Made by a program: the position numbers and the translations under genes. This document shows, piece by piece, positions 451 through 28,310 of a stretch of 39,460 nucleotides of DNA. Source of the DNA: a virus. The DNA lies in IMG/VR virus record IMGVR_UViG_3300009694_000006, positions 1-39,460 of that record, one strand, 5' to 3'. The stretch's first letter is position 1; the number at the start of each line of letters is the position of its first letter. The notes below the pieces were generated by a model. It worked only from the letters and a program-made list of their open reading frames with translations, did no database searches and was not told the origin of the DNA.

Positions 451-3400
451 ATGTATACACCAGTAGAACAAAGAAAAAAAATAGTTAAGCAAAAATCTTT
501 TTCTAAATCTGAAAAAAAACAAATTACTATTGAAACAGTTAAAGGTGTTTTAGGTTGGACTAAACCAGAAGATAATCCTTATTTGAAAGTTGCTAAAGAT
601 ATTGCTCAAGGAATTGCTAGAACTGTTGCGTCTGTTGGTATTTCAGCAGGTAATATTCCTAGTAAAATTAAAAGTCAAAGACCGACATTTAAAGAAGAAA
701 TTCCTACACAAGAGACAAAATTAGGTAGAGCAATCTTTGGAGAAACTCCAGTAAGAACAGTCGAAGAAAGAGTTAGACGAACTAAAGAACAAATTAAACC
801 TTATATTGGAGAAAAAATTTCTCAGAAAGTTGCTTTTCCTTTAGTAGGATTAGGCATTGCTATGGATTTAAGTGGGTTCGGAGGAGGAAAGGTTGTTAAA
901 AAAATGACAGAAATACCTGAACAATTTTGGAAAGTAATCGGAAAAGAAAAGAATGCTACTAAAATTGAAGGAATTCTTACAAGTATTGGATTAGATAAAA
1001 AGAATGCTAGATCTTTATCTGAGACTTTTGCTCCATTATCTAAAACAGAAGATCTTAAAAATGCTCTTGTATCTTATAAACCTGTATCTGAAAGAATTCC
1101 ACTTAGTGAGATTATTAAGAAAGAACCAGTTTATTATCATGGAACTAACAATGGTAAAGAAATTGTAAAACAAGGATTTAATCTTTCAAAACTAGGTGAT
1201 AACAGCGGTTATAAGGGAATAATGGGTAATGGTATATATCTTGATATGACACCTAATGCGGAAGGAGCTAAATTATATGGAAAAGATATTCTTGAGGTAA
1301 AACCAAAATCTGGATTAAAATTATTTGAATGGTCGGGAAAAGTATCTGATTTATATCATGAAAAAACTGGATATGGAACTCCTGAAAAAATTACTGAATA
1401 TTTACAATCTCAAGGATATGATGGTGTTAAACTTAATAATCAACAAATGGTTATTTTTAATCCAAAAAATATTGAAAAAGTAAAAATTTCTGGTCAAGGA
1501 ACAGGTGAATTATCTCAGATAAAAGAATCAGAAATTAAACCAGTAAAAAAAGAACCACTTCAGAATGAAACTATTAAATGGATAGATAATTGGGTTTCAG
1601 GGAGTAATAAAAAACCATCTTTGAAAGTTGAACAACAATTATCAAAGTATAAAGGAAATAAACCTGTTACATTATACAGAGCTGTTATTAAAGGAAAAGA
1701 AAAAACTAATGAAATTGAATCTTGGTCTTATTCGAAAGATGGAGCTGAATTTCATGCAGATGTTGGTTTCCCTGAAAATGCTGAATATACCATTATAGAA
1801 AAACAATTTAATCCTGAAGATATTATATTTGATAGTAGACATCTTTCTGAAGATGAACTAAGTTCTTTTTCAGAAAATGCTCTTAGATACTTAGAAACTG
1901 AAAATGAGGTTATTGTTAGAAATAATAAAATTAAAATTCCTAAAACAGGAAATGAAGTAAAAGAAAGTCCAATAGATATTAAATTTCAATCTAAGATTAA
2001 AAATAAAGAATATCTTAAGAAAAATTTCGAAGATGAAGACTTAAAAATAGAAGATTCTGGAAAAAAATATGTGTATCATGCAACTAATAGTAAAAATATT
2101 GAAGAAATTAAACAAGAAAAATTCTATAGAGCACAACCAAAAGGAGAGGGCTTAATAAAAAGAGGAGGAGGAAGTATGTATGGGAATGCTCCTCATTTCA
2201 GTGAAAATCTTGTAACTGCAAAAATGTATGGTGATAATATAATTGAATTTGGAATTAAAGATGGTTCAAATATAAAAAGATTCAAAGGAACATATGATTT
2301 GAATAAAGAAGTAGGAGAATGGGCTGAAAAAACAAAAGGAGCATTTTATAAAAATAATACTGAAGGAAATCAATTAATAGATGATTGGGCTAAGGCAAAC
2401 AAGGTTGATATATTATTTGTTGGACAAGATGGTAGTATTTTTAATCAAAATGCAATTAAAAGATTTGATGATAATAAATCTCTTTTCCCTACAGTTATTC
2501 AAGGTGAAACATTTACAATGGGTCCTTCGACAACAACTTCTCCTACATTAAAAGGGTTGAAAACTGAACTTAAAGCAACTCAAAAAGAAATTAAAAATGC
2601 ACAGATTGCTGCTGAGAAAGCTGCTAAATTAGATGCTAAAGAACAAAAAGTAAGAACAGATGCTTTATCAAAACTTAATAGATATCGAGGTTCTACTGAT
2701 ACAATTGAAGGAGAATTGAAAAATAAAAATCTATCTCAAGAGGATATTGAAAATATAGTTCTTGAAGATGGAACTAAACTACTTGATGCTGCAAAAATAA
2801 AACGTAATAATGATGGTTCTCTTTCAACTGTTATAACTAAAAAAGAACTTGAAGATATCAAAGCTAGTTATACTGATGAAGTGCCGAAACAAAAATGGGA
2901 AAAGAAATCTATACTTGTAAATGCAAAAGAAATTCCTATTAATCTTTTAAAATCAATTGAACTACCTTATTCTTATTTTGAAAGAAAAGGATTATCTTCT
3001 ATCTATGATCAAGTAATTGAATCACAAAGAGATGCTGAATTAATGAAAAGTAGATTAATTGAAAAATTCAAAGATGCTGGTTTATATAAAGAGGGAGGTT
3101 GGTTTACTGCAAATCGTTTTAACTTATCTAAGAATGAAGCTGAAGGAGTATCTGAATATTATCTTGGACATCAAGGACACGGAAAGGAAATTCCTATTAC
3201 AGATTTATCTTCTAATGGACAGAAGTTTGTTAAAGTATTTGATGAAATAATTAATGAAACAACTAAACCATTTTATGAAGTAGCTAGAAGAATGGGAAAG
3301 AATCCTGGAGTTGTTGAAAATTATGCACCAATAATGACAAGAGACGATATAAAACTTGTTGATCAAGGTGGTGGTCAAGATTGGTTATTTAGAAAACATC

Positions 3401-4920
3401 CAGCATTCTTTTCACTTAAAGAAAGAGTTAAAAGAGTACCTAAAGAAATATACGAAACAGATTATAGAAAAGTTGCAAGTCGCTGGTTAGATGGAATAAC
3501 ACAATTTATAACAATGGGTGATACTACTAACCATCTTAAGTATTTAATTAATAGTGATGAATTTAAAAGTTTAATTAAAGAACAAGATTATTCAATTGTT
3601 TCTAATTGGCTTAAAGATATCACAACTCCTCAGATATCAGGTTCATTAGCAGGACAAGCGACAAATGATTTATCTAGATTAATGAGAAAAGGAGTTGCTC
3701 TTGGGTCTCTTGGATTAAACTATGCTACAGTTCTCAAACAGGCATTAACTCAAATACCAATAACTATTATTGAAAAAGCACCTCCTAAATTTAAAAGTAA
3801 ATATGCTGAAGCTTTTGGAATTAATGTTAAAGATTTACCTTCTATTTCTAAGAGAAAAGGAGATATTGCTATATCAGATTTACAAGGTAAAATAGGAAGT
3901 ATTTTTACAGGAGCTATTACACAGTTTGATAAGAAGAATGCTCAATTAGCTATGAATGCTTTACTTGATAAAGAGTATCGTAAATTTTTAAAACAAGGAG
4001 ATGAAATAACTCCAGAAGTAAGAAAAGTAATTGAAAAGACAGCTCAAGATAAAATAGATATGTGGTTTGGAGGTTTCTTTAAAGGACAAAGACCTGAAGC
4101 TTATAGACAAGAATTAGGAAACTTTATTTTAATGTTTACTTATCCTTTGACTTCTCAAGCTAATGGATTTTTCAGACATATGTTAAAAGCTAAAGGTTTT
4201 GTTGGAAACATTAAAGCTGTTGCCGAAGTTCTTGGAGCTGTTGTAGGAATTGCTTATATGGAAAAAGTTATAGAAAATCTAAGTCCTCAATGGAGTGATG
4301 AAAAAGAAATGACAAAAGATATTCTTGTATCTGCAACAGGAAATATTCCAATGGCTGGACAGATTGCTTATGCTATAGAATCAGGACAAGATATGAACGT
4401 ATCTCCTGTTGTAGGAAATATAAATAATATAGTTAGAAATATAAGTAAAGGCGAAGGAGAAAAAGTAGCTTGGAATATTGCTGAAACTATTGGATTACCA
4501 AAACAGATTAGACGAATTAGAGAAGGTCTTGAAATAATGGAAGAAGGCGGCGTTACAGATAGTAACGGAAAAATGATGGCTCCTGTTCAAGATACTATGG
4601 AATATATTCGCGCATTCTTAAGAGGAAAATATGGACCTTTAGCTTCCCAAGATTATATTAGAAATATGGGAGCTGATGCTGAAGATAGAAGATGGTTTTA
4701 TCCTGAAGTTGAATTTTTACAAAATGCTGGAAGTTCAAAACATCCTAAAGATGGAAGTTATAAGAGAAGAGCAGAAATTTATAAAACTTGGGATAAACAA
4801 AAACAAATTGAAATGAGAAATTTTTTAAGTGAAAATCAACAAAAAAAATTAGATAAAGCTCTTCAAGGAAAGTCGACATCTAGTAAGGGCACAAAAGCAT
4901 TATCAGATATTTTTAAATAA
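451..4920 (+). CDS. Giant polyvalent virion/ejection protein (1489 aa), a T7 gp16-like position. The N-terminal third has three ADP-ribosyltransferase-like modules. The C-terminal part is a large hydrophobic/Gly-rich body.
   Basis: PARP-like motifs YYHGT...GIMGNGIYLD...AKLYG (H230). An R-S-E-like set TLYRAV (R410), SWSYS and ETENEVIV (E484, E486). A second H-Y module YVYHAT (H543)...SMYGNAPHF. Sits just before the lysis genes and after other large structural genes. Confidence 0.6.
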   Translation: MYTPVEQRKKIVKQKSFSKSEKKQITIETVKGVLGWTKPEDNPYLKVAKDIAQGIARTVASVGISAGNIPSKIKSQRPTFKEEIPTQETKLGRAIFGETPVRTVEERVRRTKEQIKPYIGEKISQKVAFPLVGLGIAMDLSGFGGGKVVKKMTEIPEQFWKVIGKEKNATKIEGILTSIGLDKKNARSLSETFAPLSKTEDLKNALVSYKPVSERIPLSEIIKKEPVYYHGTNNGKEIVKQGFNLSKLGDNSGYKGIMGNGIYLDMTPNAEGAKLYGKDILEVKPKSGLKLFEWSGKVSDLYHEKTGYGTPEKITEYLQSQGYDGVKLNNQQMVIFNPKNIEKVKISGQGTGELSQIKESEIKPVKKEPLQNETIKWIDNWVSGSNKKPSLKVEQQLSKYKGNKPVTLYRAVIKGKEKTNEIESWSYSKDGAEFHADVGFPENAEYTIIEKQFNPEDIIFDSRHLSEDELSSFSENALRYLETENEVIVRNNKIKIPKTGNEVKESPIDIKFQSKIKNKEYLKKNFEDEDLKIEDSGKKYVYHATNSKNIEEIKQEKFYRAQPKGEGLIKRGGGSMYGNAPHFSENLVTAKMYGDNIIEFGIKDGSNIKRFKGTYDLNKEVGEWAEKTKGAFYKNNTEGNQLIDDWAKANKVDILFVGQDGSIFNQNAIKRFDDNKSLFPTVIQGETFTMGPSTTTSPTLKGLKTELKATQKEIKNAQIAAEKAAKLDAKEQKVRTDALSKLNRYRGSTDTIEGELKNKNLSQEDIENIVLEDGTKLLDAAKIKRNNDGSLSTVITKKELEDIKASYTDEVPKQKWEKKSILVNAKEIPINLLKSIELPYSYFERKGLSSIYDQVIESQRDAELMKSRLIEKFKDAGLYKEGGWFTANRFNLSKNEAEGVSEYYLGHQGHGKEIPITDLSSNGQKFVKVFDEIINETTKPFYEVARRMGKNPGVVENYAPIMTRDDIKLVDQGGGQDWLFRKHPAFFSLKERVKRVPKEIYETDYRKVASRWLDGITQFITMGDTTNHLKYLINSDEFKSLIKEQDYSIVSNWLKDITTPQISGSLAGQATNDLSRLMRKGVALGSLGLNYATVLKQALTQIPITIIEKAPPKFKSKYAEAFGINVKDLPSISKRKGDIAISDLQGKIGSIFTGAITQFDKKNAQLAMNALLDKEYRKFLKQGDEITPEVRKVIEKTAQDKIDMWFGGFFKGQRPEAYRQELGNFILMFTYPLTSQANGFFRHMLKAKGFVGNIKAVAEVLGAVVGIAYMEKVIENLSPQWSDEKEMTKDILVSATGNIPMAGQIAYAIESGQDMNVSPVVGNINNIVRNISKGEGEKVAWNIAETIGLPKQIRRIREGLEIMEEGGVTDSNGKMMAPVQDTMEYIRAFLRGKYGPLASQDYIRNMGADAEDRRWFYPEVEFLQNAGSSKHPKDGSYKRRAEIYKTWDKQKQIEMRNFLSENQQKKLDKALQGKSTSSKGTKALSDIFK

Positions 4921-4922
4921 CT

Positions 4923-5885
4923 ATGCAAAATAATTACGAGGGTTGTAGAGATACACAAACAGAAGAACAGAAATCATTAAACTATAAACTTATTGAAGTG
5001 TGCTCGGCTCCTCAACCAGTTAGTTGGATTGAAAAAACTAATTATAAAAGTTATCCTATTCGTGATCAAGATGGATCATGTCAATGTGTTACAATGACAT
5101 TAGCTACTGAAATGGGGATTATTGCTGAACAGAAGTATGGAACTTTTATAGATTTTTCATCTTGTTTTCCTTACCAGCAACGAAAATATACTAGTTTTAA
5201 AGGTTGCACTTCAGAAGACTTATTCGAAGTATTTCCAAAGATAGGAAATATTCTAGAAATATTAATGCCAAGTCAGAAAATTGGAGAAAATGCTTGTATG
5301 GCAGTTCCTAAACTTAGTTACTATGATGATTTAGCAAAAGTATTTAAAATCAAAAGAATTGCATTACCACTTGATTTTGAAACAGTTGCATCAACAGTTC
5401 AAGCAACAGGAAAAGGTGTTTCAGTTTGGTTTAAGTTTGACCATACAGAATGGACTAATAAACCTCAAGTTTTAGTCTCGAACCCAACAGGAGGACATTC
5501 AGTTACTGTTGTTGATTTTGCTCTTATTAATGGTAAGAAATATCTAGTTATTCAAGATAGCTGGGGAATAAGTTTTGCAGTTCGAGGATTGAGATTTATT
5601 TCAGAAGAATACTTTAAAGCAAGATGTTATCAAGCATCATATTTACTTTCATTTTCAATGCAAACAGAACAAGGAGTAAGACCTACCTATATTAGTAGAT
5701 CAGTTAGTTCAGCAAAAGATTGTTTCAAATGGGAAGGATTATTCCCTACGAATATCGAATCAAATAATGTAGCTGATAACATTTACAAAACAGCTGTAAA
5801 AAGTTTTCAGAAACGATTTGGTTTGACTAGTGATGGGATTGTCGGACCTATTACTCGTCAAAAATTATTAGAATTATATAAATAA
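4923..5885 (+). CDS. Endolysin: papain-fold cysteine peptidase with a C-terminal peptidoglycan-binding domain.
   Basis: Cys motif DGSCQCVTM. His/Asp motifs GGHSVTVVDF and IQDSWG (papain-like NSWG). C-terminal PG_binding_1 signature FQKRFGLTSDGIVGPITRQKL. A holin-like gene follows. Confidence 0.75.
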   Translation: MQNNYEGCRDTQTEEQKSLNYKLIEVCSAPQPVSWIEKTNYKSYPIRDQDGSCQCVTMTLATEMGIIAEQKYGTFIDFSSCFPYQQRKYTSFKGCTSEDLFEVFPKIGNILEILMPSQKIGENACMAVPKLSYYDDLAKVFKIKRIALPLDFETVASTVQATGKGVSVWFKFDHTEWTNKPQVLVSNPTGGHSVTVVDFALINGKKYLVIQDSWGISFAVRGLRFISEEYFKARCYQASYLLSFSMQTEQGVRPTYISRSVSSAKDCFKWEGLFPTNIESNNVADNIYKTAVKSFQKRFGLTSDGIVGPITRQKLLELYK

Positions 5886-10168: not shown

Positions 10169-10951
10169 ATGGCTAAATCACGAATAATAAACACAAAATT
10201 TTGGAGTGATAACTGGGTTAGACGATTAGATAAAATAGATAGATATTTATTTCTATATTTTTTAACTAATGAACATACTAGTATCTGTGGTGTTTATGAA
10301 TTATCACTTGATGTCATGTCTTTTGAAACAGGAATAGAAGAAAAAGAACTTTTAGAAAAATATATTCCACGACTTCAACCTAAAATGATTTACGTTAGAG
10401 GGTGGGTTGTTCTCGCAAACTTCCAAAAACATCAATCATCAACAAGTATTACAGTTCAAAAAGGAATAAAAGTAGAGATTGAAAAAATACCGTTAGATAT
10501 TAAGAAAACAATTGATGATATATATGCTAGTGATATGCTATCTATACCATATCCAGAGCATAACATATATTTAAATTTAAATTTTAATTTAAATTTAAAT
10601 ACTAAACGTATTGTCGGTAAACCGACGATTTCTACTCAAAATAGGAAAAAAGAAAGTAATAATTTATCTTTTAGTGAGAAACCTAAAATTTATTCTTTAA
10701 TAGAAGAAATTAAAAAATTAGAAAATTCCGAAAGACGAGATCTTAACATTATTGCTTTGTTTTTTCGTTATAAAAATCCAGATCTTAAAACCTACGAACA
10801 ATATCAAATTGCACTTACAAGACATTTGAAACCTGCAAAAGCACTTGTCTTGTTTGATAATGAGCAACTTATCAAAGCAATAGAGATTGCTAAGAAAGAA
10901 TATCCTGAGATATATACCTTAGAAACATTATTAAAAATATTAACAAAGTAA
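10169..10951 (+). CDS. Replication initiator/replisome-organizer-like protein.
   Basis: N-terminal FWSDNWVRRLDKIDRYLFLYFLTNEHTSICGVYEL resembles phage replisome-organizer winged-helix N-domains. A central linker is encoded by an AT-only repeat. Confidence 0.45.
   Translation: MAKSRIINTKFWSDNWVRRLDKIDRYLFLYFLTNEHTSICGVYELSLDVMSFETGIEEKELLEKYIPRLQPKMIYVRGWVVLANFQKHQSSTSITVQKGIKVEIEKIPLDIKKTIDDIYASDMLSIPYPEHNIYLNLNFNLNLNTKRIVGKPTISTQNRKKESNNLSFSEKPKIYSLIEEIKKLENSERRDLNIIALFFRYKNPDLKTYEQYQIALTRHLKPAKALVLFDNEQLIKAIEIAKKEYPEIYTLETLLKILTK
10565..10601. repeat. AT-only tandem TTTAAA/AAATTT tract inside the initiator gene. Candidate origin unwinding element.
   Basis: The sequence atatatttaaatttaaattttaatttaaatttaaata has no G or C for 37 nt. 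It encodes the linker YLNLNFNLNLN. Confidence 0.4.
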
Positions 10952-11541: not shown

Positions 11542-11919
11542 ATGAACATACAACAAAGAAATCAACGAATTAAAGACTCCAATTTATCAATTCAAGAATT
11601 AGCTAATAAGTATAAAATTAGCTACGAACGAGTTAGACAAATTCTTCGAGATGACAAAGAAAGACAAATAAAACGATTTCTCTTTATTGCTAAAGAATAT
11701 CAAGAAAATGTTTCTAAAATTATTGAAACGGATATAAATAAAGAAATTCAAAGATTAAAAAGTAAAGGTCGAAATAAAATTATAATTATTCAAAAAGTAA
11801 TTTTTATCAAAACTTTGAAAGATACGTATGGAATGTCGCTTTACCGAATTGCTAAGTTATTTGGTAATAGCTACGGCACAATTATTCATCTGTATAAGAA
11901 GGTCGGAATTAAGATATAA
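11542..11919 (+). CDS. HTH DNA-binding protein with a sigma-70 region-4-like motif.
   Basis: SIQELANKYKISYERVRQIL, plus a second HTH-like segment SLYRIAKLFGNSYGTIIHLYKK. Confidence 0.5.
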   Translation: MNIQQRNQRIKDSNLSIQELANKYKISYERVRQILRDDKERQIKRFLFIAKEYQENVSKIIETDINKEIQRLKSKGRNKIIIIQKVIFIKTLKDTYGMSLYRIAKLFGNSYGTIIHLYKKVGIKI

Positions 11920-12561: not shown

Positions 12562-12733
12562 AGAGTATCATGGATGTGAAGGAAAAGTTATCGAATATGA
12601 TTTAAAGAAGTGGGTTATGTATGATTTTAAAGTTCGAAATTATAAAATGAATCTTTGTGAATATCATTTTAGATTGAAATCTTATCCTGAATCTAAAAGA
12701 GATATATATAAAATTCTAAAGAAAAAATGTTAA
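12536..12733 (+). CDS. Small Cys/His protein (65 aa).
   Basis: CEG...CEYH spacing suggests zinc binding. Overlaps both neighbours. Confidence 0.35.
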   Translation: MEPICQLVEEYHGCEGKVIEYDLKKWVMYDFKVRNYKMNLCEYHFRLKSYPESKRDIYKILKKKC

Positions 12734-13053
12734 AAGAAACAGAAAGTCAAATTCAATCAGCAATTTGTGATTACCTTACATACAAAGGATATTTCTTTTG
12801 GAGACAAAACAATGTCGCAACTATTCAAATTGATAGTTATGGAACAAGAATGAGGAGAATGCCTAAGTATGCTAGAAAAGGAACTCCTGATATTTTTATT
12901 CTTTTGCCTGGTAAAGTTATTTTAATGGAAGTTAAAAGTTCTATCGGACAATTATCAGATGAACAAAAAGAATTGCAAAAAAAATGCGAAGAGTTTCAAA
13001 TTCAGTATTGTGTTGTAAGAAGTATTGACGATGTTCAAAAGTTAGGGTTGTAA
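12727..13053 (+). CDS. VRR-NUC family PD-(D/E)xK nuclease.
   Basis: GTPDIFILLPGKVILMEVKS followed by GQLSDEQ. Confidence 0.75.
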   Translation: MLKETESQIQSAICDYLTYKGYFFWRQNNVATIQIDSYGTRMRRMPKYARKGTPDIFILLPGKVILMEVKSSIGQLSDEQKELQKKCEEFQIQYCVVRSIDDVQKLGL

Positions 13054-13081
13054 AAATTAGAAAGTTATACTGTAATACTCA

Positions 13082-13127
13082 TATATTAAGAAAATAGGTT
13101 GTCCTATATTTTAATATATCATATAAT
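13082..13127 (+). promoter_or_regulatory. Early promoter family member 2: -35 TTGTCC (13099-13104), 17-nt spacer, -10 TATAAT (13122-13127).
   Basis: Upstream block TATATTAAGAAAATAGG and spacing match the promoters at 6221 and 16484. Confidence 0.65.
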
Positions 13128-13134
13128 CGATATT

Positions 13135-13719
13135 ATCGAGGTAAAGAATTTCATTGAAATCTTGATATCAAAAGTAGTAGTAAAGGAGCTTCAACACCCT
13201 TCTACCTAAGTGAAAATAGAGCTTTTGATATTAGGTTTCAGTGAATTTCTTCACTGAGTTAATTTACAACTGGAATATAAGTGCTCAAGAAAGAAAAGCA
13301 ATTAGAAGATGAGATTATAAAACAATAATATACTCATATCAATTTCTTTACTAATCTTCTTTCTTCTTAACATTTCTAGTAACTACATTCTGGTTTAAGA
13401 TAAGTTTTAAATTTAATAGGGTGTGTTAGCTCTCACAAAATTAAGTAGAGTTCAACCCAAATTTAAACAAAAAATCTTTTTCAATATCACTATTGGTATA
13501 AATTAATATCGATTTTTAATTGTCGTGCACGGTTCTGATATTCCAGAAATGGAGTAGAATTAAGAATCATAGTAGCTTTTATGTTACTATCTTTGCTTGA
13601 TAATAACAGATTATAAGCAACTAACACATAGAAGAATTCCGATAATAGTCAGTTATAAAGTTGTAGTGAACCTTTATAATATCCATTCTATTATCGGATT
13701 CTCTCTTGTGTAATAAATT
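13135..13719 (+). ncRNA. Long ORF-free structured leader or non-coding RNA (about 585 nt) upstream of the deazaguanine module.
   Basis: No ORF of 60 aa or more in any frame, and none longer than about 11 codons seen on the + strand. Contains a 28-bp duplex (13146-13174 with 13222-13249), a competing hairpin (13239-13256), and hairpins at 13419-13458, 13570-13591, 13594-13620 and 13634-13701. Confidence 0.45.
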
Positions 13720-14073
13720 ATGAAAGATAAAAAAAGGGTAAAATATAGTTTTAATCAGATGATTAATGATTCTATAGAATTAGCAAATCGTCTTAAATTA
13801 ATAAGTTTTAATTTTAAGAACATTTACTGTTCAACTCTTAATTCTCAAGTATTAGGAATTATTCTTTCAAAGGAATTAGATTTACCTATAATCTATTCTA
13901 AGGCACGAATGTCTGATGAGACACTTATTGTATCTCATCTTATAGGTAGAAAAAATCAGTATAAAAAGCAGAATACTATTGTAGCTTTATTTATTGATAA
14001 AGACTCAAAAGTAAAAGTTGCATATTATTCTCATATCTTAAGAGAAAATCAATGGATAGATTTTACTCGTTAA
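13720..14073 (+). CDS. Degenerate xanthine-guanine phosphoribosyltransferase (Gpt)-like protein (117 aa).
   Basis: KYSFNQMINDSIELANRL, NIYCSTLNSQVLGIILSKELDL and NQWIDF resemble Gpt segments recalled from memory. The PRPP loop position reads TLIVSHLIGRKNQY, with no DD or TGGT. Confidence 0.4.
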   Translation: MKDKKRVKYSFNQMINDSIELANRLKLISFNFKNIYCSTLNSQVLGIILSKELDLPIIYSKARMSDETLIVSHLIGRKNQYKKQNTIVALFIDKDSKVKVAYYSHILRENQWIDFTR

Positions 14074-14132: not shown

Positions 14133-14834
14133 ATGTTTAAAAACTACAAAGTTACACCAGAGAATATTTCTTCGTTGTATGTTATTATCGCGGGATTGTT
14201 TGTATGTTTCTTAATGATAGCAAATATTGCAGCAAATAGAATGGTATCGTTGCCTTTTGGTATAATTGTTACAGGTGATATCTTTCTATTTCCATTGACC
14301 TATATTTTCGGAGATGTGTTAACAGAAGTTTATGGTTTTAAAAGATCAAGATTAGTAATCTGGTTAGGAATGCTAGCTAATCTTATCATGATCGGTTATT
14401 TTACATTATTAATTAAAACTCCTTTTCCATCAGATTTCGTAGCTAATGATGCGTATAGAACAGTTCTTGGTGTTACACCTATTATTGTTCTTGCTTCTAT
14501 TCTTGCTTTCTTTGCCGGAGAATTCTCAAATTCAGCATCGTTATCAATTATCAAAAAATGGACAAAAGGAAAATTCTTATGGATTAGAACTATTGGTTCT
14601 ACTATTATAGGTCAAATTTTTGACACTTTAACTTTTATGTTTATTGCGTTTAATTTCTTACCTAAAGAATTATTCTGGCAAATGGTTCTTGCTCAATACT
14701 TGTTTAAAGTAATTTATGAGATTTTAGCAACACCTTTGACTTACATGATTGTTAAAAGAATTAAAAAAGTTGAACAGTTAGATACATTCGATTATGGAGT
14801 TAAGTATAATCCATTTTCGTTAAAAATAAAATAA
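14133..14834 (+). CDS. yhhQ: YhhQ/VUT-family queuosine-precursor (preQ0/preQ1) transporter.
   Basis: Multi-TM protein with family motifs FPLTYIFGDVLTEVYG, STIIGQIFDTLTFMFIAF and QYLFKVIYEILATPLTY. Confidence 0.8.
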   Translation: MFKNYKVTPENISSLYVIIAGLFVCFLMIANIAANRMVSLPFGIIVTGDIFLFPLTYIFGDVLTEVYGFKRSRLVIWLGMLANLIMIGYFTLLIKTPFPSDFVANDAYRTVLGVTPIIVLASILAFFAGEFSNSASLSIIKKWTKGKFLWIRTIGSTIIGQIFDTLTFMFIAFNFLPKELFWQMVLAQYLFKVIYEILATPLTYMIVKRIKKVEQLDTFDYGVKYNPFSLKIK

Positions 14835-14838
14835 ATAT

Positions 14839-15705
14839 ATGCGAATTTTTTTTGCAGTTAGTAATTCATCAACATATCTTAATCTCTTAAAAGAAGAAAA
14901 AGTTGATAACGTTTTAATCTCATTTGCTTTTTTCAAAAGTGCATATAAAACAAGAGAAATCTTTGGAGATTATCAACCTAAAAATCTTATTCTTGACTCA
15001 GGAGCATTTTCTGTTTGGAGTAAAGGAGATGAGATAGATATAGATCAATATGCAGTTTTTTGTCAGGATATAATTAAATTATTTTCTGAAACAAACTGCT
15101 ATTGTGTTAACTTAGATGTTATTCCTGGAAAGTTTGGAAAACGACCAACTTCTCAAGAAATAATAGATAGTGCAGAACAAGGATGGAAGAATATGGAATA
15201 TCTTGAATCAAAAGGATTAAAAGTTATTCCGGTATTTCACCAGCATGAAGATTTTTCAGTTCTAGATAAATTAACAAAACACACAGATTACATTGGAGTA
15301 TCACCAGCAAATGATTGCTCAATGGAAGAAAAGTTAAGTTGGCAAGATCAAGTATATTCAATTTTAGTTAAACAACCTGAATTGATTAAAACTCACGGAT
15401 TTGCTGTAACTTCTACAAAACAACTTTACCGATATCCATTATTTTCAGCAGATAGTTCTTCCTGGACTTCTCCTAGTCGTTTTGGAACAATTCCTATTGT
15501 TACAGATGATTTAGAAATGAAAGTAATTAAATATAAAGATAAAACATCTGTAATGAAATACTGGGAGTATATCAAAGATTGGAGTATCGAAAAATTATCT
15601 TCCGAAGATTGGAAAGATAGAATTACATTATCAATCAAGTCGTATTTACTTCTTAATAAGATAGCTAATAAGTTATGGGATAAAAGAGGTATTAAGTGGA
15701 AATAA
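14839..15705 (+). CDS. dpdA: DpdA-like DNA-guanine transglycosylase (TGT superfamily).
   Basis: LILDSGAFSVW motif (TGT/DpdA DSGxF), size 288 aa, adjacent to yhhQ and a ParB-like gene. Confidence 0.6.
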   Translation: MRIFFAVSNSSTYLNLLKEEKVDNVLISFAFFKSAYKTREIFGDYQPKNLILDSGAFSVWSKGDEIDIDQYAVFCQDIIKLFSETNCYCVNLDVIPGKFGKRPTSQEIIDSAEQGWKNMEYLESKGLKVIPVFHQHEDFSVLDKLTKHTDYIGVSPANDCSMEEKLSWQDQVYSILVKQPELIKTHGFAVTSTKQLYRYPLFSADSSSWTSPSRFGTIPIVTDDLEMKVIKYKDKTSVMKYWEYIKDWSIEKLSSEDWKDRITLSIKSYLLLNKIANKLWDKRGIKWK

Positions 15706-15710
15706 AAAAA

Positions 15711-16439
15711 ATGAATAAAGTTATAAGTGAAAATAAAAAATTAGTGACAACAAAGAGAATTGTTCGAATCGATGATATCATTCCAAATCCTTTTAATCCA
15801 AATAAACAATCTGATTATATTTTTCAAAAAATGAAAGATACAATCGAAACAAAAGGATTGTTTGGTTCAATTATTGTTCATGAGTTAGCAGGTATTTATC
15901 AAATACTTGATGGTGAACATAGATGGAAAGCTTGTAGAGAACTTGGATGGAAAGAACTTCCTGTAGAAGTATCTCCTCAATTAGAAGAAAATGATGTTAA
16001 GTTTTGGACTATTTATTTTAACAACACTCACGGAAAAGATGATATTGAAAAACGAGCTAAGTTATTTGAAGAAATAGACGAAGGTCAAGCTCAGTTGCTT
16101 CCTTTCACAGAAGAAGAAATCAAAAACGAAAAAGAACTTTTCAAGTTTGATTTTTCAAAGTATGATGAACAAAAAGAAATATCTGCATTAAAGAAAACAA
16201 ACATGATATCATTTTCTGTTTCAGAAGATATAAAAGAATTGTGGAATAGATGTCTTGAAGTTTGTAAAGAAGATAAAATGGATATTTCAATTATGGTCTA
16301 TCGAATGTGTGATGAGTTCTTAAGAATGAATGATTTTCGTTATAATAAATTTCTTGAAGAAAAAGAACAAAAACGAGTTCAAGATGTCATAGATAAGGAT
16401 ATTAGAAAAGCTAAAGAAAAAGAATTAAATGAAAATTAG
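15711..16439 (+). CDS. ParB N-terminal-domain protein (DpdB-like position).
   Basis: IIPNPFNPNKQ and ILDGEHRWKACRELGW motifs. The ATG at 15711 is preferred over the in-frame GTG at 15696 listed in the track. Confidence 0.7.
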   Translation: MNKVISENKKLVTTKRIVRIDDIIPNPFNPNKQSDYIFQKMKDTIETKGLFGSIIVHELAGIYQILDGEHRWKACRELGWKELPVEVSPQLEENDVKFWTIYFNNTHGKDDIEKRAKLFEEIDEGQAQLLPFTEEEIKNEKELFKFDFSKYDEQKEISALKKTNMISFSVSEDIKELWNRCLEVCKEDKMDISIMVYRMCDEFLRMNDFRYNKFLEEKEQKRVQDVIDKDIRKAKEKELNEN

Positions 16440-16483
16440 TAGGTGGGGATAACTATTTTTTAGTCTTATTTTACAAGATGGTA

Positions 16484-16529
16484 TATATTAATAAAATAGG
16501 TTGTCCTAAAATAAAAAATAGCTTATAAT
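16484..16529 (+). promoter_or_regulatory. Early promoter family member 3: -35 TTGTCC (16501-16506), 17-nt spacer, -10 TATAAT (16524-16529).
   Basis: Upstream block TATATTAATAAAATAGG is nearly identical to that of the 13082 promoter. Confidence 0.65.
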
Positions 16530-16537
16530 ATAATCAA

Positions 16538-16607
16538 GGAGGTATGAATATGGGATAGGACATTTTGGTTACGACTGGAATTATCCTATGTCATATTCCT
16601 CTACTCC
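16538..16607 (+). promoter_or_regulatory. 5' leader hairpin holding the only strong SD-like AAGGAGG I noticed in the genome, plus a 2-4 codon mini-ORF.
   Basis: GAATATG (16546-52) pairs with CATATTC (16592-98). ATAGGA (16555-60) pairs with TCCTAT (16584-89). GGAG (16538-41) pairs with CTCC (16604-07). Mini-ORF is ATG AAT ATG GGA TAG. Confidence 0.4.
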
Positions 16608-16632
16608 GATTATAAATTAAAAAATATTTTTT

Positions 16633-16761
16633 ATGAAAAAAGTAAGAATATTAATTGAAGTGAACGGAGAGGTAAAAAGATTTTTTCTAACAATATGCAA
16701 CGATACTGAATTAGAAAAGATAGTAAATGTGATTTCAAAAGAAATTGCAAATCATAAATAG
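16633..16761 (+). CDS. Small ORF (42 aa), not in the supplied track.
   Basis: Translates MKKVRILIEVNGEVKRFFLTICNDTELEKIVNVISKEIANHK. Fills the promoter-to-gene gap. Confidence 0.4.
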   Translation: MKKVRILIEVNGEVKRFFLTICNDTELEKIVNVISKEIANHK

Positions 16762-16776
16762 TCGAATTATAAATTA

Positions 16777-16833
16777 ACTTGTGTCCTTCTACCTTAGCAG
16801 TTTACTCACAAGTTTTCTGCTAAGGTGAAAGGA
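16777..16833 (+). promoter_or_regulatory. Pseudoknot-capable leader element 10 nt upstream of the 16844 start codon.
   Basis: S1: ACTTGTG (16777-83) pairs with CACAAGT (16807-13). S2: CCTTAGCAG (16792-800) pairs with CTGCTAAGG (16817-25). An extension TCCTT pairs with AAGGA. The S1 3' strand lies in the S2 loop. Confidence 0.45.
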
Positions 16834-16843
16834 ACTTATTAAA

Positions 16844-19745: not shown

Positions 19746-19945
19746 TGTTACTTAACTGTATAATTAATGACTATAAAGAAAATAAACTTAAAATTATAAG
19801 TAAAAATGTTTTCTGTCGTAAAAGTAAAAGATGTAGAGAAGTTATTAAAAAATTATATTTTTTACAATACGATAATGGAGATATTCGAAGAATCGGAAGA
19901 AAAGAACGAGAAATATTACAATCTATCAATAAAATAACCTCATAA
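19742..19945 (+). CDS. Hypothetical basic protein (67 aa).
   Basis: ORF. Intact paralog of 19272-19349. Confidence 0.45.
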   Translation: MMLLNCIINDYKENKLKIISKNVFCRKSKRCREVIKKLYFLQYDNGDIRRIGRKEREILQSINKITS

Positions 19946-19960
19946 GCGAGGTTATTTTTT
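19931..19960. terminator. Bidirectional intrinsic terminator between convergent genes.
   Basis: AAAATAACCTC, loop ATAAGC, GAGGTTATTTT. A-run and T-run flank the stem. Confidence 0.75.
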
Positions 19961-20189
19961 AGTTTAGAAACTTGTAAAGCCTTTTAATTTTTGGATTTAC
20001 ATTCTCATAGTGTTTCATTTTAGATATTCTCAGAATTAACATGATTATATCATAGAAGTCTTTATCAAAGAAAATAGAATGAATCATTTTTTCTTTTTGT
20101 TCGTCTATGTATAATAAATTTTCTGGGATAGATTTTCCACCATTACATCTATTCTTAATGTGATGATAAACATTTTTTTTCTTTTTCAT
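19959..20189 (-). CDS. Small HNH endonuclease (76 aa). The only convincing minus-strand gene.
   Basis: YHHIKNRCNGGKSIPENLLYIDEQKEKMIHSIF matches HH...GG...N...H. Confidence 0.6.
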   Translation of the reverse strand: MKKKKNVYHHIKNRCNGGKSIPENLLYIDEQKEKMIHSIFFDKDFYDIIMLILRISKMKHYENVNPKIKRLYKFLN

Positions 20190-26686: not shown

Positions 26687-27880
26687 ATGGACGACATAAA
26701 ACTAGAATTTTGGGGAGACATGCAGAAGACTCTTTGGGTTGAAAACTCAGCTTTGAATGTTCTCTCTAATAGCCAACTAGAGGGCTTAATCTCTACAGAT
26801 GGACGTAAAGCACACAAGCCAGTAATTTCATTACCACATTCCGGAACTTATACCCCTTACGCAGATATTTCTTTCAATAGAAAGACTGCTTCAAAACAAA
26901 CACTTGAAGTTAATACTTTCTCTTATGCCGCAGATGAAATAGATATTACAGACAAGAATCAAACAAGATATCCTTTGACCGAAACTGCTGCATCTGACCA
27001 AATGAAGACTCACAATAACAAGATTGAACAACTTGTTATGAGCAAGATTTCTGGAGCTACTCATATTATTCAAGGAACTGGTAATACAACTTTAACAGTT
27101 GATACTACAAGTATTTTCGACATCTTTGAAGAGTCTGATACAAAGCTTGGTTCAGTAGATGCTCCTTTTGAGAATCGTATTGCTATCTTTGGACCTCACG
27201 TTGTTGCAACAATCCGAAAAGCAAAGTCTCAAAGAGAGACAGGAATGGGAGATATGATACTTGCAAATGGTATCGTAGGATCTTGGAACGGATATAGAAT
27301 TATTCAAAACAATAACTTGCCTTACAAAGCAACATTGACAATGGATACAAATCCAACAGCAGCTGATACAGTAACGATTGCTGGTGTTACATTTGAATTC
27401 GTGGCAGCTTTGGCAAACGTTTCTTCAACTTCATACATTGCAGTTGTAATTGGAAACGCAGTTGCTGATACAAGACTTAACCTTAAGAATGCTATTATCG
27501 GAAATGCAGCTACAAAAGATTCAACTTGGGCAGAAGCTACTGGTTCAGTTGGAACAAATCATCGATTTGTCCTTTCTGAAAAGAGAGGAATTGCAATAAC
27601 AAATGCTGAAGCTATGGCTTTAACTGGTTATGGTGATATAGTTGTATCTGAAACATTTACAGCGGCAACAAACGTTTGGTCAGCACAAGAACAAACAGCA
27701 ATAATGGGTGTTGCTGGAATGATAGACTTAGTTCTTCAAATTCAAGAAATTGAAACAACTAAGAAAGAAAAAGGTTTTGCTGATCTAGTAAAATCTTTGA
27801 TCGGTGTTGGAACTTACATGTTTGACGACGGTGCTCGTGTCGCAGTGAAAGTTCGTGTTAATGCTAGTGCTTGGAAATAG
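26687..27880 (+). CDS. Putative major capsid protein (397 aa).
   Basis: Size, position after the scaffold-like gene, Ala/Thr/Gly-rich soluble protein, followed by stable hairpins. Confidence 0.55.
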   Translation: MDDIKLEFWGDMQKTLWVENSALNVLSNSQLEGLISTDGRKAHKPVISLPHSGTYTPYADISFNRKTASKQTLEVNTFSYAADEIDITDKNQTRYPLTETAASDQMKTHNNKIEQLVMSKISGATHIIQGTGNTTLTVDTTSIFDIFEESDTKLGSVDAPFENRIAIFGPHVVATIRKAKSQRETGMGDMILANGIVGSWNGYRIIQNNNLPYKATLTMDTNPTAADTVTIAGVTFEFVAALANVSSTSYIAVVIGNAVADTRLNLKNAIIGNAATKDSTWAEATGSVGTNHRFVLSEKRGIAITNAEAMALTGYGDIVVSETFTAATNVWSAQEQTAIMGVAGMIDLVLQIQEIETTKKEKGFADLVKSLIGVGTYMFDDGARVAVKVRVNASAWK

Positions 27881-28004
27881 ACTAGAACCTAACCTTTATG
27901 GGTTGGGTAAGGTGCTAGAAGGTCGATATTCTAGCATCACATCCAACTCATAATCGGTAAGTGATTATAAATTATTAATCCTCTCGAAAGAGACAAAAAT
28001 ATAT

Positions 28005-28310
28005 ATGAAATTTTTAAATCGTGGACTTAAAATAAAATCAGGAAATGAAAAAGCATTAATAGCTAACAATGTTACTGCTTCACATCTTGTAGCTTTTGCA
28101 GGAACAGCATCAGGTGGAACAACAGCAACTCGTGCTTATACAATAACAGGAGTATTAGCAACAGATATTGTTACTTGTGCAATTAGAGCATCTCAAAATG
28201 CTACTACAATTCAAAAAGCAACTCTTACTGCTAACACTTTAACAGTTATATTTGCCGCAGATCCTGGAACAGGAACAACTGTTGATTATCAAATTCTTAG
28301 AGCAATTTAA
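28005..28310 (+). CDS. Small Thr/Ala-rich virion protein (101 aa).
   Basis: Position in the structural operon. Beta-rich composition. Confidence 0.4.
   Translation: MKFLNRGLKIKSGNEKALIANNVTASHLVAFAGTASGGTTATRAYTITGVLATDIVTCAIRASQNATTIQKATLTANTLTVIFAADPGTGTTVDYQILRAI

Follow-up and report, generated by a model that had tools for sequence, protein, structure and literature searches.

We describe a family of large structured RNA, new to annotation, that a phage genome almost certainly encodes in a 666-nt gap between two genes; the window analysed here comprises the whole 39,460 nt of the stretch. In this genome the RNA is about 575 nt long (~13134-13711, + strand), with a conserved promoter directly upstream and no terminator before the deazaguanine cassette that follows. 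A hairpin at the 5' end (P1) is optional, as is a peripheral domain; the 5' core is enclosed by a helix that joins strands 230 nt from each other, and the loop of a 3' hairpin pairs with the loop of hairpin H7. The evidence for the family comes from 10 distinct sequences of a single clade of uncultivated phages with fixed synteny, so that the association with the cassette does not count as independent evidence, and the family is narrow.

The gap (13054-13719) runs from the stop codon of a VRR-NUC gene (12727-13053) to the ATG of a 117-aa gene at 13720. It had been described from the sequence as free of ORFs and as the largest non-coding stretch of the genome, and both descriptions hold: the inner ORFs of 23-45 aa vary in frame and position among relatives, and the next gaps measure 404 nt and then about 300-340 nt. 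An apparent ORF-free stretch of 1.3 kb at the window end belongs to a long ORF that continues through the junction of the circular assembly. A semi-conserved ORF of 25-30 aa lying over helices H5-H7 was considered and rejected, being missing in three lineages and carrying compensatory substitutions. Ten distinct metagenomic relatives have a gap of 580-785 nt at the same position, between VRR-NUC and a PRTase-like/YhhQ/DpdA/ParB-like cassette, and nucleotide identity to them is 69-83% in the gap versus 68-83% in the flanking coding genes. The original prediction had held that stems without conservation or covariation in related phages, or an intact gene at this locus in them, would speak against a structured RNA. 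The region is kept and its stems covary, and none of the relatives has an intact gene at the position of the gap. The RNA is AT-rich (27% G+C) and confined to one phage clade.

The genes and promoters that frame the RNA are as follows.

12727-13053, + strand: VRR-NUC nuclease gene, the conserved upstream neighbour (Pfam PF08774, E = 1.1e-5)
13085-13127, + strand: conserved promoter, with extended -35 AAAATAGGTTGTCC, 17-nt spacer and -10 TATAAT (consensus scan, conservation)
13720-14073, + strand: 117-aa gene, degenerate phosphoribosyltransferase-like, first after the RNA and without a Pfam hit of its own
14133-14834, + strand: Vut_1/YhhQ-family transporter, preQ0 salvage (PF02592, E = 1.4e-48)
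14839-15705, + strand: DpdA-like DNA-guanine transglycosylase (PHROG 887, queuine tRNA-ribosyltransferase, E = 3.5e-48)
15696-16439, + strand: ParB_N-domain protein (PF02195, E = 3.3e-11)
16497-16529, + strand: second promoter copy of the same class, at the downstream edge of the cassette

VRR-NUC lies directly upstream in all relatives that reach it, and homologues of the 117-aa protein (64-79% identity) always follow directly after the RNA. This protein is 25% identical to a 131-aa protein of a distant relative, L123, which matches PF00156; its acidic PRPP-loop residues are not conserved. YhhQ is a preQ0 transporter with homologues in phages (PMC6884629), and DpdB, a ParB-like ATPase, is needed together with DpdA (PMC10164549); the ParB_N-domain protein is thus a candidate for a DpdB-like partner of DpdA. 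The phage identity of the window is given by matches to terminase (a conventional large terminase), capsid and tail fibre.

No large gap follows VRR-NUC in relatives without the deazaguanine cassette (L208, L001, L005). In L003 and L125 the gap after VRR-NUC is not structured (z = +0.55 and -1.4). The RNA was not found in other phages bearing DpdA or YhhQ (L006-L008). L123, which has a full preQ0/preQ1 gene set, carries a different structured, RNA-like gap of 591 nt in the same place (z = -9.5). Each of two covariance models of the RNA, R1 (built on the 3' domain) and R2, was run on 12-13 sources (the window, L121 and related phage loci) and recovered nothing but family members; since neither model matched L123 or other phage loci, homology of the two structured gaps cannot be shown.

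The promoter proposed at 13099-13127 (TTGTCC-17-TATAAT) was recovered by a consensus scan and, together with its extended -35, is kept in all relatives reaching that far; judged from its position, transcription would start near 13134. A scan for terminator-like sites found none 3' of 13258. The copy at 16497 likewise precedes a long hairpin and a structured leader (z = -6.3). An antisense promoter-like site (13342-13314, - strand) lies in a segment that is not kept in relatives.

Compared with shuffled sequences, the minimum free energy of the full-length RNA gave z = -7.1 for the + strand and -5.1 for the - strand. Local z-scores over 300 nt are among the best of the genome, yet they do not single out the gap, and covariation is therefore the decisive evidence. 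The consensus structure, computed with RNAalifold and supported by pair counts in the alignment, has 132 pairs in 18 helices, with 93.3% of cells paired against 36-46% when the partners are slid. Changes on both sides were counted at 42 pairs versus 17 +/- 3 in shuffled alignments, and 0 of 500 shuffles reached the observed value. Across the alignment G:U cells far outnumber A:C cells (106 versus 16), which identifies the folded species as the + strand RNA. The RNA also contains long, nearly invariant unpaired stretches, and two of its domains have been gained or lost between lineages in the manner of the peripheral domains of large RNAs. The earlier claim that a promoter drives a transcript rich in base pairs just ahead of the deazaguanine module is supported. 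The elements of the fold, all on the + strand, are listed below.

13139-13256, + strand: P1, long irregular 5' hairpin (base 13139-13142/13253-13256 and 13146-13157/13238-13249, on to 13174/13222; tip variable)
13239-13256, + strand: small hairpin CAGTGAA-TTTC-TTCACTG, terminator-like with a weak tail, overlapping the 3' arm of P1 and mutually exclusive with it
13259-13506, + strand: 5' core domain, closed by the long-range helix Pa (13259-13266/13499-13506)
13268-13276/13387-13395, + strand: Pb, 5' core helix
13280-13285/13378-13384, + strand: Pc, 5' core helix
13288-13293/13372-13377, + strand: Pd, 5' core helix
13296-13300, + strand: AAGCA, candidate pseudoknot partner of TGCTT (13594-13598), 97.8% paired
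13304-13309/13362-13367, + strand: H3, 5' core, tip variable
13397-13402/13473-13478, + strand: Pe, 5' core helix
13406-13414/13459-13467, + strand: H4, covarying
13419-13422/13455-13458, + strand: H5, covarying
13428-13434/13445-13452, + strand: H6, 5' core helix
13481-13484/13493-13496, + strand: H7, covarying
13487-13492, + strand: H7 loop UCACUA, 5' partner of a loop-loop (kissing) contact with 13664-13669
13513-13566, + strand: variable peripheral domain (stem 13513-13521/13558-13566, inner hairpin at about 13541-13554)
13524-13531, + strand: conserved unpaired palindrome CGTGCACG within the peripheral domain
13570-13589, + strand: H8 hairpin (13570-13576/13583-13589), 90% paired, 2 pairs with compensatory change
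13624-13711, + strand: 3' composite hairpin (H9a 13624-13628/13707-13711, H9b 13638-13648/13688-13698, H9c 13653-13660/13672-13679)
13664-13669, + strand: UAGUGA in the 3' hairpin loop, partner of the H7 loop

In the 5' core, the strands of Pa, 230 nt apart, show compensatory changes in three lineages (L013, L017 and L118). The complementarity noted earlier between a purine and a pyrimidine tract is partly borne out: 13304-13309 pairs with 13362-13367 and covaries, but 13288-13293 pairs with 13372-13377 instead. Likewise, three of the further hairpins that had been listed covary (13419-13458, 13481-13496 and 13570-13589), but the one at 13594-13620 is not supported, since half of the relatives no longer have its G-C pairs. 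The pairing of the H7 loop with the 3' hairpin loop (13487-13492/13664-13669) holds in all 10 sequences; a C-G pair is replaced by U-A in L118, and also in L017/L121 after shifting one alignment gap, and an A-U pair becomes G-U in L018/L021. L017/L121 and L118 are related, so this covariation may represent a single evolutionary event. Another partner for the 3' loop, GUUACUAC (13378-13385), was rejected, its pairing being broken in the window and in L118 while the H7 pairing is intact everywhere, as was a long-range pairing of 13389-13393 with 13491-13495, which is mostly G-U wobble and competes with the well-supported H7. The candidate pseudoknot of AAGCA with TGCTT is neither supported nor refuted by covariation, because both strands are nearly invariant; the local alternative to it is the hairpin at 13594-13620.

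At the 5' end, the predicted 28-bp duplex (13146-13174/13222-13249) is real, corresponding to the base and middle of P1, with compensatory changes in the alignment. P1 folds as a single hairpin of 104-163 nt in 9 of the 10 lineages (the window and 8 others), and covariation is seen in its conserved base, the tip being variable. The whole P1 region, including the small hairpin, has been cleanly deleted in L015/L016, leaving the closing CAGU/ACUG; this precise deletion marks P1 as an optional domain. Where present, the small hairpin varies as G-U, G-C and A-U among relatives, and its tail, only UUAAUUUA, pairs in helix Pa. The small hairpin is exactly as predicted. The attenuator logic proposed for it and the duplex calls for mutually exclusive antiterminator and terminator hairpins followed by a U tract: the two structures do exclude each other and both are kept in relatives, but the tail is weak and this sole attenuator-like element of the RNA is dispensable, having been deleted in L015/L016. 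P1 provides a duplex of the length that RNase III calls for (~20 bp or more) in the window and 8 other lineages, and the modelled hairpin could be an RNase III site or a 5' protective hairpin. An RNase III processing platform, one of the alternatives raised at the outset, is possible for P1 only.

The peripheral domain is missing in L018 and L021 and shorter in L011, L117 and L013; its stem is 94% paired, without covariation. The strongest covariation is found in the 3' domain, where 16 of 24 pairs have changed on both sides, including 9 of the 11 in 13638-13648/13688-13698; the loop of this hairpin, GUUGUAGUGAACC, is nearly invariant. The composite 3' stem of the original prediction, which had placed its end 19 nt before the ATG, is confirmed; since the stem extends outward to 13624-13628/13707-13711, it ends 8 nt before the ATG. 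The 3' helix stops 8-10 nt short of a start codon lacking a Shine-Dalgarno sequence in 7 of the 9 lineages that extend to it; one sub-lineage (L017/L121/L118) carries an inserted hairpin element, roughly 75-115 nt long, that separates the RNA from the ATG. Sequestration of the start codon was not seen, the predicted accessibility of the start region at 13720 being average (0.50, rank 19 of 47 genes).

Scans with Rfam models, including preQ1-I, -II and -III, ROOL and GOLLD as suggested with the original prediction, matched the RNA to no known family. No Rfam 15 model reached its gathering score in the whole window, and permissive scans (the region at E <= 10, eight relatives at E <= 1) returned chance matches to microRNA and snoRNA models only (E >= 0.03). 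The preQ1-I (RF00522), preQ1-II (RF01054) and preQ1-III (RF02680) models gave nothing at E <= 10 in 12950-13800 or at E <= 1 in the eight relatives, and the ROOL (RF03087), GOLLD (RF01998) and group I/II intron models gave no match in the window or region scans, nor did the ROOL model in the eight relatives. In the 39.5-kb window ARAGORN detected no tRNA genes. Rfam scans of six phage loci at a greater distance and of 20 bacterial YhhQ loci yielded only chance matches and, in the bacterial loci, three tRNAs; none of these 20 loci, the closest bacterial ones, has a preQ1 riboswitch. A blastn search of INPHARED with 2.2 kb had no match; the genome closest by its terminase, MW202577 (51% identity), is laid out differently and has neither the cassette nor the VRR-NUC gap. 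Protein-seeded scans of IMG/VR (117-aa protein, VRR-NUC, DpdA, YhhQ) found only distant phages without the RNA, and a 15-mer scan of IMG/VR yielded 92 loci, in none of which nhmmer detected it. A pattern scan of metagenomes recovered two true members (L117 and L118) and two chance matches; the same kind of scan of a genome collection was empty, so that no prophage or host was found.

What such an RNA does is less firmly indicated than its existence. The explanation that we prefer, as plausible but short of probable, is that the RNA represents a new family of large phage RNAs acting autonomously, transcribed together with the deazaguanine cassette and probably functionally tied to it. The folded core would act as an RNA in its own right, as a compact particle or RNP, possibly oligomeric through the complementary loops and the unpaired palindrome CGUGCACG (13524-13531), oligomerisation being purely conjectural; its mode of action would resemble that of ROOL and GOLLD rather than that of a metabolite switch. 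It would be made as the promoter-proximal part of the cassette transcript and either freed by processing at the long P1 duplex or left attached, and its function would probably be linked to the deazaguanine cassette with which it co-occurs. The architecture goes beyond that of known leaders (18 helices, the long-range Pa, a covarying loop-loop contact), and there is no expression platform, given the missing 3' terminator, the average start access, the 75-115-nt insertion and the deletable P1. Against this explanation, the RNA forms in physical terms the 5' UTR of an operon, and conserved structures in 5' UTRs mostly serve cis-regulation; L006-L008 have DpdA or YhhQ without the RNA.

A giant cis-regulatory leader, the main rival, is a real possibility, though on balance an unlikely one. 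In response to a signal that it senses, the RNA would tune elongation of the transcript, stability of the mRNA or the rate at which the cassette is translated; candidate signals are a 7-deazaguanine precursor, PRPP, guanine, or a protein of the cassette or host, for example DpdA or TGT binding an anticodon-loop-like UGU hairpin. Its place fits well: it lies immediately 5' of the cassette and on its strand, starts behind a promoter of its own and has no terminator. The approach of the 3' helix to the start codon fits too. The co-occurrence with the cassette, the analogous structured gap before the deazaguanine genes of L123 and the conserved alternative pairing of P1 and the small hairpin point the same way. 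Weighing against it are the want of a known aptamer, of a terminator after the core and of an unusually occluded start codon, together with the element inserted before the ATG in one sub-lineage, the dispensability of the switch-like P1 and the 20 bacterial YhhQ loci without a preQ1 riboswitch. Also, in size and complexity the RNA exceeds known riboswitches and T-boxes several-fold. A classical riboswitch in particular is not supported, for want of a terminator and of any unusual occlusion at the start codon; nor is the preQ1-type or other known riboswitch entertained earlier, given these two observations and the Rfam scans, in which no such family reached even E = 0.7 in the region or eight relatives.

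We consider it improbable that the RNA is a generic platform for mRNA 5' processing or stability, in which long hairpins after a promoter protect the transcript or serve RNase III and the fold is otherwise functionless. The P1 duplex of about 28 bp just past the start site and the hairpin behind the 16497 promoter would suit such a role, but it accounts at most for P1, which is dispensable, and does not explain a conserved core of ~450 nt that includes long-range helices, the covarying contact between loops and invariant unpaired segments.

A replication origin with a structured primer transcript, as in ColE1 RNA II or the promoter-dependent origins of T7 and T4, is very unlikely. An AT-rich non-coding segment of about 575 nt behind a promoter, at the border between modules, recalls such origins, and the length is similar to that of RNA II; however, the G:U bias and compensatory changes indicate that RNA folding has been under selection throughout the segment, neither iterons nor direct repeat families were found, the antisense promoter-like site is not conserved, the cumulative GC skew has no inflection at the gap, and cassette-less relatives lack the gap. 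The G:U to A:C ratio and the lack of iterons speak equally against the DNA-level ori or pac region that had been offered as an alternative.

There is a slim chance that the RNA is a diverged member of a known family, whether preQ1 riboswitch, ROOL, GOLLD or an ORF-less group I/II intron. It is phage-encoded, near ROOL in size and followed by preQ0-related genes, but no Rfam 15 model reached its gathering score in the window, permissive scans gave chance matches and tRNA genes are absent; ROOL membership, suggested earlier on grounds of length, founders on the unmatched covariance model and these missing tRNA genes. An intron is excluded because the flanking genes are complete, VRR-NUC having its own stop codon and homologues of the same length, and the ATG of the 117-aa gene being conserved. 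Finally, a decayed pseudogene or neutral spacer, for which nothing speaks except the absence of an ORF, is contradicted by the alignment, in which the gap is as conserved as its neighbouring genes, substitutions are compensatory rather than codon-like and no relative has a gene at this position.

Among the alternatives initially proposed, then, a large phage ncRNA fits best. Bacterial and phage RNAs longer than ~400 nt with elaborate conserved folds are few, among them the rRNAs, RNase P RNA, tmRNA, introns, OLE, GOLLD, ROOL and HEARO. To our knowledge, each of these whose function is understood revealed new biochemistry or architecture; new ones are rare, and we know of none yet linked to DNA hypermodification.

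Like the gap RNA, ROOL is phage-encoded, about 580 nt long and very highly structured, with covarying loop-loop contacts and a poorly conserved internal region (PMC12286853). Unlike ROOL, which often lies with tRNA islands, the gap RNA has no tRNA genes nearby, does not match RF03087 even at E = 10, is 27% G+C, is found in one phage clade, and leads a specific gene cassette with a dedicated promoter. ROOL molecules assemble into an RNA-only multimer, a nanocage. GOLLD is also a large ornate phage RNA, conserved at the 3' end and more variable at the 5' end (PMC12286853), and in the gap RNA the 5' hairpin P1 is likewise variable or absent; GOLLD exceeds 800 nt, however, and the gap RNA, at about 575 nt, neither matches its model nor lies near tRNA genes. 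In both ROOL and GOLLD the covarying kissing loops proved to be intermolecular (PMC12286853).

As with the preQ1 riboswitches (I-III), the genes downstream of the gap RNA handle bases of the preQ0/preQ1 type, but the RNA matches no class and has no expression platform. It is 6 to 15 times larger than these riboswitches, which in bacteria control transporters of the YhhQ family, the point from which the idea of a ligand-sensing leader had started. The pRNA of phi29 offers a parallel for the loop contact: its two complementary loops covary between related phages, and their pairing is intermolecular and builds a ring. This pRNA, of about 120-174 nt, belongs to the packaging motor of a phage that replicates by protein priming; the phage studied here has a conventional large terminase. 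The c-di-GMP-II riboswitch and group I intron of Clostridioides difficile provide a precedent for a multi-domain catalytic or regulatory 5' leader of roughly 600 nt, but the gap RNA matches no riboswitch or intron model.

The gap RNA is well defined, with a promoter, ~18 helices, a long-range closing helix, a loop-loop contact and two optional domains, and its size puts it within reach of cryo-EM and chemical probing. The cassette for preQ0 salvage and DpdA DNA modification gives it a clear genetic partner, such as ROOL and GOLLD do not have, and so allows a concrete functional hypothesis. The RNA might take part in 7-deazaguanine hypermodification of phage DNA, either as a working component or as its dedicated sensor, binding for example DpdA, the PRTase-like protein or a 7-deazaguanine base; we put this forward as a speculative and rather doubtful proposal. 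If it were true, this would be the first large structured RNA tied to a DNA-modification pathway, and the 591-nt structured gap of L123, unrelated as it looks, would join it as the second example of that functional class.

The 666-nt gap at 13054-13719 of the window holds a conserved, folded RNA, which represents a new family of the large ornate phage RNA type in an unusual, testable genetic context. The window is an AT-rich tailed-phage genome (about 29% G+C) with all genes on the + strand and PHROG matches to large terminase, major head and tail fibre proteins. Bases 1-123 recur identically at 39338-39460, and the window is therefore a circular assembly of about 39.3 kb. The 3' end looks empty but is occupied by a long ORF crossing the circular junction (from about 38200 to 4920), in which a frame open for 424 codons probably runs on into the 1489-aa ORF at 451-4920, giving a protein of roughly 2000 aa without a PHROG match. 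Because that end is coding, the gap is indeed the biggest non-coding stretch, as originally predicted; the next ones are 404 nt and about 300-340 nt. Its neighbours are as follows:

Upstream of the gap, + strand: VRR-NUC gene
13720-14073, + strand: 117-aa gene, read as degenerate phosphoribosyltransferase (PRTase)-like, directly downstream of the gap
Next, + strand: Vut_1/YhhQ transporter gene
Next, + strand: DpdA-type transglycosylase gene
Next, + strand: ParB_N protein gene

YhhQ is a preQ0 transporter with phage homologues (PMC6884629), and preQ0 insertion into DNA is carried out by DpdA with the ParB-like ATPase DpdB (PMC10164549). Given these published roles, the block 3' of the gap is, by analogy, a 7-deazaguanine DNA-modification cassette of the salvage type. 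The short 117-aa protein appears to be a degenerate PRTase, with the acidic residues of the PRPP loop replaced (VSHLI--G here vs VVDDIIDTG in the homologue from the distant contig L123), and it has perhaps lost its activity or been repurposed.

Nothing resembling the locus was found in cultured-phage records or in IMG/VR. A search with the 117-aa protein gave nine clusters (64-100% identity), and their contigs, together with a metagenome DNA-pattern scan and a VRR-NUC homologue look-up, yielded ten distinct versions of the locus, all belonging to a single clade in which gene order is fixed. All ten have an ORF-poor gap of 580-785 nt between VRR-NUC and the 117-aa gene, alignable over its full length, promoter and extended -35 included, and as similar to the window in nucleotide sequence (69-83%) as the flanking coding genes (68-83%). 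No small ORF in the gap is conserved among the relatives.

Manual extension of the RNAalifold prediction for the ten sequences gave a consensus structure of 18 helices and 132 base pairs, with the following main parts:

13139-13256, + strand: P1, long 5' hairpin, base conserved and tip variable, in nine lineages
13259-13266 with 13499-13506, + strand: helix Pa, closing the 5' core domain
13513-13566, + strand: peripheral domain, absent from two lineages and shorter in three others
Between the peripheral domain and H9, + strand: hairpin H8
13624-13711, + strand: H9, 3' composite hairpin, with the densest covariation of all

Standard pairs fill 93.3% of cells, as against 36-46% when partners are slid by 1-3 columns. 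Both-side changes occur at 42 pairs, compared with 17 +/- 3 in column shuffles (0 of 500 reach 42) and 6-13 in slid versions. G:U cells number 106 and A:C cells 16, so that the folded species is the + strand RNA; a - strand fold or DNA-level symmetry is thereby ruled out. Three lineages carry compensatory changes in Pa, within which lie the Pb/Pc/Pd/H3 arm, the Pe/H4/H5/H6 arm and hairpin H7; P1 is cleanly deleted in two independent samples (L015/L016). Thus conservation and covariation, by which the original prediction could be judged, are both present, and an intact gene at this position in relatives is absent. The elements it had listed all lie where it had placed them, including the TTGTCC-17-TATAAT promoter at 13099-13127; one of its hairpins, 13594-13620, is not supported by the alignment. 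A candidate pseudoknot, 13296-13300 with 13594-13598, is invariant, so covariation gives no verdict on it.

In all ten sequences UAGUGA (13664-13669) of the nearly invariant H9 loop, GUUGUAGUGAACC, pairs with UCACUA (13487-13492) of the H7 loop. C-G becomes U-A in L118, and also in L017/L121 once one alignment gap is shifted, while A-U becomes G-U in L018/L021. Since L017/L121 and L118 are related, a single compensatory event is possible, and the contact appears well supported but not proven. The optional peripheral domain contains an unpaired 8-nt palindrome at 13524-13531, CGUGCACG (CGTGCACG), conserved in six of the ten lineages, which cannot fold back on itself and might allow two RNAs to dimerise.

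Whole-gap folding gave z = -7.1 for the + strand and -5.1 for the - strand, and the gap's three windows rank 2nd, 8th and 25th of 262 in a genome-wide scan of 300-nt windows. Several coding windows score near them, and folding energy by itself is therefore not decisive. The strongest match to the sigma-70 consensus here points antisense into the RNA (13342-13314, - strand; TTGATA-17-TATAAT, 11/12); it falls in a segment that the relatives do not share, with an 8-nt insertion absent from them, so that it is probably a chance match. Other windows at z -4.0 to -4.5 (31501-31800, 27751-28050, 10501-10800 and 19801-20100) lie within or between genes.

No Rfam 15 family was matched, whether the window was scanned with gathering thresholds, the region with E <= 10 or eight relatives with E <= 1, which excludes recognisable members of the preQ1-I, -II, -III, purine, ROOL, GOLLD, raiA, intron and self-cleaving ribozyme families. 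A real promoter-driven structured RNA stands from the original interpretation; the known riboswitch (preQ1-I/-II/-III or purine) falls on the Rfam 15 result, as does ROOL membership, with tRNA genes also absent from the window. No tandem or iterated repeats were found.

Our first-ranked reading, held tentatively, is an autonomous folded RNA, which would perhaps be oligomeric via its complementary loops and the palindrome; we infer its start site, 3' end, processing and any oligomerisation. Its size, many helices, loop-loop contact and optional domains are of the kind seen in large autonomous RNAs such as ROOL and GOLLD, in which kissing loops that covary turned out to bridge separate molecules (PMC12286853). 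The next most likely reading, not far behind, is a giant cis-regulatory leader. In physical terms the RNA makes up the 5' UTR of the cassette mRNA, which favours a cis-regulator, and it has a dedicated promoter, no terminator-like sites after 13258 and a helix, H9a, that stops 8 nt short of the ATG. However, the conserved core has no downstream terminator, and the start region of the 117-aa gene has a predicted unpaired probability of 0.50, ordinary for the phage (rank 19 of 47). L017/L121 and L118 have a hairpin element of roughly 75-115 nt inserted between the RNA and the ATG. The alternative pairings of the P1 3' arm and hairpin 13239-13256, all that resembles an attenuator here, are dispensable. 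Long-range closure and long invariant single strands are likewise features of large autonomous RNAs rather than of a classical switch, and on this evidence the autonomous RNA is placed above the leader. The inserted element (L121, 2944-3060; L118, 427-505, - strand; L017, about 967-1062) has a long closing stem in which GGUGUAUCUAUACCC pairs with GG(A/G)UAU(G/A)GAUACAUC.

The 117-aa gene adjoins the RNA in every case. In three related contigs (L208, L001, L005) packaging or other genes come straight after VRR-NUC, and both the cassette and a large gap are absent. In contig L123, a more distant relative of higher GC whose VRR-NUC is 50% identical, VRR-NUC precedes an ORF-free gap of 591 nt (5220-5810) with its own sigma-70-like promoter site and a predicted folding z of -9.5, stronger than that of the window gap; HNH-like and QueE-like genes follow, then QueD, a PRTase, FolE, QueC and QueF. 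Neither Rfam nor two covariance models built for the RNA matched this gap, so that it is either unrelated or too diverged to be recognised; it may be a second large RNA that accompanies deazaguanine genes. A gap of this kind is absent from the other DpdA- or YhhQ-bearing phages. Taken together, the joint absence of cassette and gap, the L123 gap and the bracketing of the cassette by two same-class promoter copies (13095 and 16497) suggest, but do not prove, that the RNA is functionally part of the deazaguanine module, which is the basis for reading it as tied to 7-deazaguanine DNA modification.

A scan of 20 bacterial YhhQ loci at Rfam gathering score found no preQ1 riboswitch. The nearest cellular YhhQ homologues (L128-L207; 51-59% identity) are mostly from Syntrophomonadaceae and other anaerobic-digester Bacillota MAGs, a weak pointer to the host. 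A Shine-Dalgarno sequence is recognisable at 0 of 48 gene starts in the window, where leaders are A/U-rich, which points to a host with SD-independent initiation. The conserved promoters are sigma-70-like, not Bacteroidota-like, despite these gene starts, and 11542-11919 encodes a small protein that matches sigma-70 region 4.

The second promoter of the class, TAGGTTGTCC-N17-TATAAT at 16497-16529, heads the 404-nt gap (16440-16843), where a long hairpin immediately follows the start site. The gap folds with z = -6.3 and contains a second strong hairpin and a 42-aa ORF that is called in relatives too; it may be either a further structured leader or the gene of a small protein.
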